Below are positions 41,553-42,795 of a DNA stretch of 64,000 nucleotides, piece by piece. Under the pieces are notes generated by a model, which saw nothing but the letters and a program-made list of their open reading frames with translations, did not search any database and had not been told where the DNA came from. The position numbers and the translations under genes are program-made. The DNA comes from Escherichia phage 121/2022-2B: the sequence record OR958571.1. One strand, written 5' to 3'. Numbering within the stretch: position 1 is the stretch's first letter; the number at the start of each line of letters is the position of its first letter.

Positions 41553-41571
<19 letters not shown>

Positions 41572-42041
41572 TCAGTGATAAAATTATTTAAATTTTGAGC
41601 ATATTTCTTTTCATCAAAAATCTTTTGTTGTCTGCGCATCCGCCATGGCATTTCAATGAACATGTACCATATTCCTGATAATATTGATGCTGTAAAAATA
41701 TTAACAAGTATGGTTAAAAGAATCCAATCTCCTATTCTGTCCATTGGATTTTTTATAAAAAAGTAAAATACGAATGATGACACAGGAAGACTAATGATAT
41801 ACCACAGAATCATAATCTTATCTGTGAACCATTCAGCATTCGTTAACTTAGCACGACCATTATGAATACACACGAATTTATCATCTGTTACCATAGATGG
41901 CTTAACTGCTTGATATCCCATTCTAAACTCCCTAATTAATCGTTTCTTTGTATCTTCAGAACAGCCGCTCCAGTCAACTCTATCAACTGAAATGCCATCA
42001 TCCCCATCATCTAAATCATACCAGCGAGTTTTTAAAATCAT
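41553..42041 (-). CDS. membrane protein, paralogue family (C-terminal CRK tail), member 1
   Basis: ORF track 162 aa; soluble N-domain, two hydrophobic helices, tail [10 protein letters not shown]. Confidence 0.5.
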
Positions 42042-42400
42042 TTAATTTTCCTACAATCACTCACAAACTCTTCCATTGATTCTTTTTCAATATAAGACAT
42101 GTAGCTATTATATTCTTTTAATTGTATTTTGTAATCTTTTTTTCTTTGCCAATTTATTTTAAAATTATCATAATGAAAATATAACATGGTACCAAAGAAT
42201 GAAAATAATGAAATAATTTTAGTATAGTGAAGTTCACTCCAAACTTCTATTATATTTACTGTGCCGTCAATGTTTAAAATAAGACAGTCAATTAACAATC
42301 CAAAAAGACTACCAGCAAGAGCTGCAGCCAACGCCACAGCAAAAATTAAAAATGACTCAGGAAGCGAATATTTGACTTTATTTAGTTTTGGCTTTTGCAT
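42038..42400 (-). CDS. membrane protein, paralogue family, member 2
   Basis: ORF track 120 aa; two hydrophobic helices, tail EEFVSDCRKIK. Confidence 0.5.
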   Translation of the reverse strand: MQKPKLNKVKYSLPESFLIFAVALAAALAGSLFGLLIDCLILNIDGTVNIIEVWSELHYTKIISLFSFFGTMLYFHYDNFKINWQRKKDYKIQLKEYNSYMSYIEKESMEEFVSDCRKIK

Positions 42401-42795
42401 CGTGATTCCTTAACAAATTTCATAATTTCATCAAATTCATATGCAGCAAGTTTAAGCTGGTGTTCCTTTTTAATCTTTTTACACTGTGCTTTCCAATCAC
42501 GTACGCGTTTACGATAATGTCTTCCTTGATACCAGTATCCTACCCAATTTACGGGTACTAATAAAAGTGGAACTATTAATGGAAGAATTAGCATTAACAC
42601 AAGTATTTCGCCAGAATCAATATCAGTCATAACATCTAAAACACCTCCAATAATCAATAGAATTACAAATGATATAAGTATAACAGGACCTATTAATACA
42701 TCAGTAGAAATTAGCTGACGCTTTGGTTCATACTTCACAGGTTTACTTGGAAGGTATAGTGATGGCTTTGACATATTCTCTACATTCCTTAACAA
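42382..42795 (-). CDS. membrane protein, paralogue family, member 3
   Basis: ORF track 137 aa; two hydrophobic helices, tail MKFVKESRCKSQN. Confidence 0.5.
   Translation of the reverse strand: MLRNVENMSKPSLYLPSKPVKYEPKRQLISTDVLIGPVILISFVILLIIGGVLDVMTDIDSGEILVLMLILPLIVPLLLVPVNWVGYWYQGRHYRKRVRDWKAQCKKIKKEHQLKLAAYEFDEIMKFVKESRCKSQN

Follow-up and report, generated by a model that had tools for sequence, protein, structure and literature searches.

The early genes e.2 to e.5 of a T4-like Escherichia phage appear to share a selected C-terminal peptide

What are small membrane proteins encoded close to a phage lysozyme gene for, and why should several of them end in nearly the same few residues? 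The question is raised by Escherichia phage 121/2022-2B (sequence record OR958571.1), of which a stretch of 64,000 nucleotides (nt), hereafter the window, was analyzed. A sequence-only reading of the window had described three tandem open reading frames (ORFs) as duplicated membrane proteins with related Cys-Arg-Lys tails, and had suggested, among other roles, that they act in lysis timing. These ORFs (41553..42041, 42038..42400 and 42382..42795) were found as described, on the minus strand. We compared them, together with the adjacent upstream gene, with their relatives at the level of families, profiles, codons and gene order.

The window DNA is that of a Tequatrovirus (T4-like) genome, positions 41000-43400 being about 96% identical to many Tequatrovirus genomes, and the minus-strand gene order is that of T4 (e, nudE, e.2, e.3, e.4, e.5, e.6, e.7, e.8, then the tRNA cluster). 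With PHROG matches at E 1e-60 to 1e-76, the three ORFs can be identified as the orthologues of T4 e.2, e.3 and e.4, early and non-essential genes that already have annotations. Between the window and T4, the e.2-e.5 proteins are 88-95% identical, and the order e.5-e.4-e.3-e.2-nudE-e and the overlaps are alike. The four genes are as follows:

41553..42041, minus strand: e.2, 162 amino acids (aa); PHROG 2203 'membrane protein'; Pfam PF26896 Phage_T4_Y06M.
42038..42400, minus strand: e.3, 120 aa; PHROG 2330; without a Pfam family.
42382..42774, minus strand: e.4, 130 aa from the conserved ATG; PHROG 2604; Pfam PF26873 Phage_T4_Y06O.
42743..43357, minus strand: e.5, soluble, 204 aa; PHROG 2607; Pfam Phage_T4_Y06P; first cistron of the e.5-e.4-e.3-e.2-nudE run.

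Family membership agreed with gene order in each case. The e.2 protein matches its PHROG at E 1e-76 over residues 1-160, PF26896 is found on all homologues, and the gene lies directly upstream of nudE. For e.3, which lies between e.4 and e.2, the match covers residues 1-118 (E 2e-60) and identity to T4 e.3 is 88%, while for e.4, between e.5 and e.3, positions 1-130 of the profile align with residues 8-137 of the longer ORF (E 2e-70), and its homologues carry PF26873. That longer ORF begins at a TTG (42795), where the gene had first been placed; the ATG at 42774 (MSKPSL), with which every homologue and PHROG 2604 start, is almost certainly the true start. The Pfam families of e.2 (Phage_T4_Y06M), e.4 (Phage_T4_Y06O) and e.5 (Phage_T4_Y06P) come from a newer release than our local copy, and correspond to the UniProt names Y06M, Y06O and Y06P; together with PHROGs 2203, 2330, 2604 and 2607 they reflect the treatment of e.2-e.5 in databases as four unrelated families. 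The genes e.2-e.4 have been annotated for years as 'conserved hypothetical, predicted membrane protein'. Public records also misname e.2-e.5 orthologues as 'sulfurtransferase', 'DNA primase', 'site-specific RNA endonuclease', 'host specificity protein' or 'phosphoserine phosphatase', and the searches made here back none of these five names.

Homologues are confined to the Tevenvirinae, with 643 phage records for e.4, 607 for e.3 and 533 for e.2. When the e.2 profile was run against 1.84 billion representative proteins, 15 matches only were obtained, and a protein-based locus search of IMG/VR returned four loci only. A match of the e.2 profile to P0197, a surface protein of 2100 aa, was driven by repeats and was rejected as spurious. 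Both e.4 and e.3 are present in Tequatrovirus and Mosigvirus, e.2 occurs without e.3 or e.4 in Dhakavirus and Gaprivervirus, and phage LQ5 has a single e.3-like gene between an e.5-like gene and the next gene block.

The relatedness of the tails held up for e.2 and e.3, both by motif and by alignment statistics. The strict motif F[IVL].[ED]CR[KE] has three matches in the six-frame translation of the window, against 0.02 expected from shuffles, and all three are C-termini, those of e.2, e.3 and e.5. The e.2 and e.3 proteins align with each other by BLASTP (E 0.007) and by profile-profile comparison (E 7.8e-6, with reversed-sequence controls at 0.009-0.035). In hhalign, the C-terminal part of e.5 aligned with that of e.2 at E 2.6e-6 and with e.3 at E 8e-5, the reversed controls being far weaker. 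These informative profiles combined Tequatrovirus sequences with the Mosigvirus, Dhakavirus, Gaprivervirus and LQ5 orthologues; profiles from Tequatrovirus only (effective number of sequences, Neff, about 1.2) gave probabilities of just 1-10%. A fourth carrier of the tail, overlooked in the earlier reading, is the soluble upstream protein e.5. In the list of tail motifs below, SD denotes the Shine-Dalgarno sequence of the following gene:

41562..41582, minus strand: e.2 tail F-I-T-E-C-R-K, then L-K-stop; AGG AAA is the nudE SD.
42047..42067, minus strand: e.3 tail F-V-S-D-C-R-K, then I-K-stop; AGG AAA is the e.2 SD; stop/start overlap ATGA.
42394..42417, minus strand: e.4 terminal tail F-V-K-E-S-R-C-K; AAG GAA is the e.3 SD; CGA TGC includes the e.3 ATG (42400).
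42469..42495, minus strand: e.4 internal tail-like motif W-K-A-Q-C-K-K-I-K; C98 does not vary within the Tequatrovirus set and is kept in Mosigvirus e.4.
42776..42796, minus strand: e.5 tail motif F-V-K-E-C-R-E; upstream of e.4, the anti-SD is matched best by the K-E codons AAG GAA.

In e.4, the terminal tail (FVKESRCK) reads R-C in place of C-R and is not significant alone. It draws support from the full-length profile alignment of e.3 with e.4 and from a stretch of 16 nt identical to the e.5 tail, and appears to be a permuted copy of the shared tail, in which the Cys arises because the e.3 ATG overlaps within CGA-TGC. The internal motif of e.4 pairs weakly with the e.2 and e.3 tails in shallow profiles (E 0.04-0.05), and either motif may be the ancestral e.4 tail.

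Beyond Tequatrovirus the peptide persists while the proteins around it diverge. In the C-terminal part, e.2 homologues of 21-36% identity have no invariant residues other than F154, I155, C158 and R159. At the stop codon, Mosigvirus e.3 ends in NFIKECRK, the e.2 proteins of Dhakavirus and Gaprivervirus in FIEECRK, and the e.3-like protein of LQ5 in FIKECKS. The e.5-like protein of LQ5, which is 19% identical to e.5, keeps F188, E191, C192, R193, E194 and Y195 (RFIAECREY). Every protein with the tail has a single invariant Cys in it, to which e.2 and e.4 each add a further invariant Cys on the cytoplasmic side.

The membrane proteins to which these tails are attached can be divided as follows (TM, transmembrane segment):

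41817-42041, soluble N-domain; 41754-41816, TM1; 41655-41726, TM2; 41556-41654, basic helical C-terminal part; minus strand: parts of e.2.
42278-42355, TM1; 42170-42226, weaker TM2; 42041-42169, cytoplasmic C-terminal part; minus strand: parts of e.3.
42637-42705, TM1; 42547-42606, TM2; 42385-42546, cytoplasmic C-terminal part with 15 Lys plus Arg; minus strand: parts of e.4.

By Kyte-Doolittle hydropathy (19-residue window), hydrophobic segments were found at residues 76-96 and 103-129 of e.2, two were found in e.4 (peaks 2.85 and 3.04), and none in e.5. In e.3 there is one strong segment (residues 11-46) and a second, weaker and aromatic-rich one (residues 59-77, maximum 1.5 over 15 residues), and thus the two hydrophobic helices originally ascribed to each protein stand for e.2 and e.4, and in part for e.3. 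The basic stretch noted after the helices is real, with 9, 10 and 15 Lys plus Arg in the C-terminal parts of e.2, e.3 and e.4. The N-terminal parts are likewise rich in Lys and Arg, while the inter-helix loops of e.3 and e.4 hold no Lys or Arg and three to four Asp plus Glu. Because the termini are basic and these loops acidic, the prediction indicates small helical hairpins in the inner membrane with both ends in the cytoplasm (N-in/C-in). The e.2 protein has the same hairpin-plus-tail layout as e.3 and e.4, placed behind its extra soluble N-domain. Its AlphaFold2 (AF2) model, made from an alignment that included distant homologues, has a mean predicted local distance difference test (pLDDT) score of 69.6 with helices at residues 69-96 and 103-161 and a poorly predicted N-domain; the second of these helices would make TM2 continuous with the C-terminal tail.

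Selection acts on the membrane part and on the cytoplasmic part in different ways. Within Tequatrovirus, the ratio of nonsynonymous to synonymous diversity (pN/pS) is 0.50-0.73 in the TM hairpins, which also contain indels, and 0.07-0.11 in the cytoplasmic basic helical parts. The TM helices and the periplasmic loop are accordingly evolving fast, and the cytoplasmic C-terminal part is under strong purifying selection. Identities also form a mosaic from phage to phage: RB6 is 100% identical to the window in e.3 and 85% in e.4, and in ACG-C40 the pattern is reversed.

The description of the three proteins as duplicates is borne out for e.3 and e.4, which align over their full length in hhalign (114 columns, probability 85%, E 5.9e-6, controls about 0.05), begin alike (M-[QS]-K-P) and are full-length paralogues. 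For e.2 against e.3 and e.4, no similarity could be demonstrated beyond the tail, and similarity of TM segments was rejected as evidence of homology. The e.5/e.4 and e.4/e.3 junctions share the 16-mer AAATTTGTTAAGGAAT (z 6.2, 0 of 500 shuffles), which fits a model in which a tandem duplication took in not only the membrane gene but also the e.5-tail/start junction.

The tails themselves serve as short direct repeats, crossover points through which whole genes are lost in frame. Phage T2 (locus 1000-1100) and Yersinia phage ZN18 have no e.2, and their e.3 ends in GAT TGC AGG AAA TTA AAA TGA AAACA (DCRK-LK-stop), that is, an e.3 body fused to the e.2/nudE junction with the crossover inside TGC-AGG-AAA. 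In UFV05 and UFV11 (UFV11 locus 1201-1521) e.4(1-31) is fused in frame to e.2(88-162) and e.3 is deleted, and Mosigvirus 348Ecol098PP (locus 1501-1992) is without e.3. Decay within a gene was found in T4 itself: in the reference e.2 (NC_000866, locus 2473-2720, corresponding to window 41553-41800) one nucleotide is missing from an A-run and one is gained 78 nt later, and the frameshifted product of 102 aa ends after TM1, whereas in the window, as in most relatives, e.2 is intact at 162 aa. A second T4 record matches e.2 in two pieces. Gene-boundary sequences are known to mediate modular shuffling, as in the promoter early stem-loop (PeSL) cassettes of T4-type phages and the linkers of lambdoid phages. 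The e.2-e.5 repeats resemble these in being short boundary repeats at which e.2 is lost or gained with its neighbours undamaged, but they differ in lying inside coding sequence, where they encode a selected peptide and translation signals and not a promoter or stem-loop.

Any account of the tail has to deal with the way in which the genes overlap. The overlaps are 4 nt between e.2 and e.3 (ATGA), 19 nt between e.3 and e.4, 32 nt between e.4 and e.5, and 4 nt between e.2 and nudE (ATGA, with the commonest ATG). The SDs, with a pairing free energy of -4.2 to -6.1 kcal/mol, lie in the upstream genes, 5-6 nt before the starts of e.3, e.2 and nudE and 10 nt before the e.4 ATG. This layout implies a single run of overlapping cistrons, e.5-e.4-e.3-e.2-nudE, with probable translational coupling, as the sequence-only reading had supposed from the overlaps of adjacent genes. 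Could the tail then be a mere by-product of coupling, in which an SD, a spacer and an ATG read in frame yield K-E or R-K and a Cys, and the peptide is without a function of its own? It is true that the following cistron has its best anti-SD match within every tail (AAG GAA, encoding K-E, in e.5 and e.4; AGG AAA, encoding R-K, in e.3 and e.2), the Cys of e.4 is imposed by the ATG in CGA-TGC, and synonymous diversity is lowered to a pS of just 0.02 in the e.4 tail and 0.08 in the e.5 tail. To this can be added the 16 nt identical between the e.5/e.4 and e.4/e.3 junctions, and an unrelated 80-aa protein of a marine-like phage that ends in YFIEECRKS with an ATGA overlap. We nevertheless consider this explanation quite unlikely, since the peptide is kept where the nucleotides are not. 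The tails of e.2 and e.3 combine a pS of 0.13 and 0.40 with a pN of 0 and 0.05; Arg is preserved over four codons (AGG, CGT, CGC or AGA in the e.2 family) and Cys over two (TGT or TGC), and the F and I/V positions are invariant outside the SD. The position of the SD within the motif codons differs by lineage, having shifted from codons 3-4 to codons 6-7 in Tequatrovirus e.2 and e.3 with the peptide unchanged, and in the e.5-like gene of LQ5 the motif is kept although its codons hold no SD and the next start is 9 codons off. Moreover, the distance from C-R to the stop ranges from 1 to 5 residues, the motif is found in none of the other overlapping gene pairs of the 64-kb window, and the junction RNAs showed no unusual folding (z -0.8 to +1.2). 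The peptide thus appears to be selected as a peptide, with the coupling signals superimposed on it. The junctions might conceivably also be bound by the translational repressor RegA, an idea prompted by its SELEX consensus.

Two further explanations, decay and lysis control, concern the genes as a whole, and both must be set against what is known of their expression. For T4, PMC9697503 (supplementary files 4 and 6) places the e.2-e.5 RNAs in the early class and records the detection of all four proteins, and knock-down by CRISPRi-ART had no effect on fitness for any of e.2-e.5 (PMC11879866, supplementary files 8 and 15), which the supplement of the same paper lists as predicted membrane proteins of unknown essentiality. 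In a T4 transposon-sequencing preprint, e.2-e.5 are not among the conditionally essential genes named. Knock-down without a phenotype, the high pN/pS of the TM parts, and a record of presence/absence polymorphism, a T4 pseudogene and the e.4::e.2 fusion of UFV05 and UFV11 would all suit near-neutral duplicates decaying in a hyperplastic region without a current function. Such duplicates should hardly show a cytoplasmic pN/pS of 0.07-0.11 or tails in e.2 and e.3 with a pN of 0-0.05 at normal pS, be kept in 533-643 phage records and four Tevenvirinae genera, or be detected as proteins in infected cells, and we regard their being without function as very unlikely. A role as holin-, antiholin- or pinholin-like lysis timers working with the neighbouring lysozyme seems highly improbable. 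It would rest on the small size, the two TM helices and the highly charged cytoplasmic C-terminus, as in class II holins, and on gene e, which in the window is less than 1 kb from e.2, e.3 and e.4. Class II holins and pinholins (such as S of phage 21) do share with e.2-e.4 two TM helices, the N-in/C-in topology and a short basic cytoplasmic C-terminus. Yet the T4 orthologues are early and not late transcripts, they are dispensable, and no holin-family match at E <= 0.1 was found in Pfam, PHROGs or NCBIfam. No lysis defect is known for T4 with its frameshifted e.2, for T2, which has no e.2, or for the Mosigvirus that lacks e.3. Linkage to the endolysin gene is also not conserved: at the Mosigvirus locus e.3 is followed by unrelated genes, and on a related metagenomic contig of RB69-type order that block stands directly upstream of e.2-nudE-e. 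Lysis timing is disfavoured by early expression, the lack of holin homology and the unconserved linkage to e taken together. Finally, T4 lysis is already explained by t, rI, rIII, e and the spanins; the T4 holin t is unrelated to class II holins and pinholins, and rI and rIII are lysis regulators.

The explanation that we prefer, to which we give a probability of roughly 60%, takes in the gene run, the hairpins, the selected tail and the paralogy described above; within it, the tail would be a cytoplasmic docking or assembly peptide on fast-evolving membrane anchors, and the genes would form an accessory module and not a lysis clock. Early in infection, the tail would gather e.5 and the membrane hairpins at the inner membrane, either on a single cytoplasmic partner or on one another, and the variable membrane and periplasmic part would serve as an anchor or a host-facing surface. 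The most plausible roles for such an accessory module would be, for example, superinfection exclusion or counter-defence in particular hosts, and early expression fits exclusion or host takeover better than lysis timing. Several points weigh against this reading. The idea of docking is drawn solely from conservation and from the location of the tails in one compartment; no homologue of known function was found in sequence searches of Pfam, PHROGs, NCBIfam, PADLOC and PDB; and homology of e.2 to e.3 and e.4 outside the tail could not be demonstrated, its C-terminal part scoring below reversed-sequence controls against e.4. The constraint on the e.4 tail is at least partly at the nucleotide level, given a Cys set by the e.3 start and very low synonymous diversity. 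The single-sequence AF2 model of e.5 (pLDDT 40.7) and the e.2 N-domain are of low confidence.

A more elaborate version of the docking idea, which we consider unlikely, would have the tail, possibly bridged by thiols or a metal, join e.5 and the e.2, e.3 and e.4 hairpins into one early inner-membrane complex. The fast-evolving membrane and periplasmic face of this complex would take part in an arms race, in which it would keep out other phages or else block a host defence bound to the membrane; the tail codons would double as coupling signals and as recombination joints, through which subunits are gained and lost in frame. For comparison there are Imm and Sp, early small membrane proteins of T4 that exclude superinfecting phage, Imm with two TM helices. 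Like them, e.2-e.4 are early, small, non-essential membrane proteins of T-even phages with the inner membrane as their likely site. They differ in that no sequence relationship was detected, with no Pfam hit of any kind and no match to exclusion families of the Imm/Sp type in Pfam or PHROGs, and in that their conserved part is cytoplasmic and not periplasmic. To our knowledge, no exclusion phenotype of e.2-e.4 has been described. The literature search brought up no function assigned to e.2-e.5 in the papers found, and the local Pfam copy, NCBIfam, PADLOC and PDB returned nothing informative for the genes. PADLOC gave 0 families for e.2-e.6, its models covering defence systems and hardly counter-defence. 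A hit of e.4 to a 'Bfi1 immunity protein' scored 14.9 bits where the cut-off is 100, and was discarded as noise from TM composition.

The neighbouring features of the run are the following:

40584..41078, minus strand: e (lysozyme).
41116..41556, minus strand: nudE (Nudix hydrolase), last cistron of the coupled run.
43375..43396, minus strand: G+C-rich hairpin with a UUCG loop just past e.6, upstream boundary of the e.5-nudE run.

For nudE there are two in-frame ATGs. The T4 record starts the gene at the upstream one (41571), which falls within the E-C codons (GAA TGC) of the e.2 tail and has no SD; most annotators choose the downstream one (41556), which has AGGAAA 6 nt upstream. At the other end of the run, the e.6-e.5 interval (43358-43398, minus strand) consists of the UUCG-loop hairpin followed by CTTGGAGTAAATAGGA-ATG, and the annotations of phages G10400 and PhAPEC2 give a terminator at the site equivalent to this hairpin. 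The GGAG just before the e.5 start is a candidate for cleavage by the T4 endoribonuclease RegB, which cuts sites of this kind.

Tail-like sequences were also met elsewhere. A DNA pattern scan of IMG/VR returned mostly the same T-even genes, plus about three probable chance matches. On IMG/VR contig 3300031162_001159 (70.6 kb, a marine-like phage), the unrelated soluble protein of 80 aa mentioned above (8313-8555) ends in AAKYFIEECRKS at its stop codon and has an ATGA overlap with the next gene; the scan may have picked it up by chance, or it may be one more protein with the tail. The loose motif YVSLCRK (34679-34699), near the C-terminus of the thymidine kinase gene tk (34646-35227, minus strand), was judged unrelated. 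In genomes of the Mosigvirus type, a series of small soluble paralogues is found downstream of e.3 (RB69 ORF139c, ORF137c and the following small ORFs), at least the first two paralogues in PhAPEC2 (locus 2857-3953) and four in LQ5 (locus 1716-2755) having a Ser-rich end with a terminal Cys, for example SSSALC, SSHTC and SSMSC before the stop. They appear to be a second tandem family with a conserved Cys-containing C-terminus.

Minus-strand ORFs at 40016-40489 and 44950-45600 begin with or hold sequences like the capsid-targeting sequences of T4 internal proteins (MKTYQEFITEA; MKSYTQFLNEA). The N-F-I-T-E of the e.2 tail is similar to the E-F-I-T-E of the first sequence and conforms to the I/L-x-E pattern of prohead-protease sites as well, which is probably a coincidence. 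The tRNA cluster (45816-46643, minus strand) holds ten genes (Arg, Asn, Tyr, Met, Thr, Ser, Pro, Gly, Leu and Gln). At this site T4 has eight tRNAs and segB, and the cluster varies among relatives.

The genes themselves are already known and no new kind of system is involved; the refinements are the shared tail, e.5 as one of its carriers, the paralogy of e.3 and e.4, and the roles in coupling and recombination, and in the annotations, Pfam assignments and literature examined there is no record of the paralogy or of the shared tail. These points are modest, and there is little in them to surprise a T4 specialist. T4 is the best-studied large lytic phage, and about half of its genes are without a known function. 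Here, four adjacent early proteins of 'unrelated' families share one strongly selected C-terminal peptide, with the conserved and presumably functional part in the cytoplasm and the membrane part diversifying. Four 'hypothetical' genes may in this way be turned into one testable module, with precise residues (F, I, C and R) and with natural deletions available in T2, UFV11 and 348Ecol098PP.

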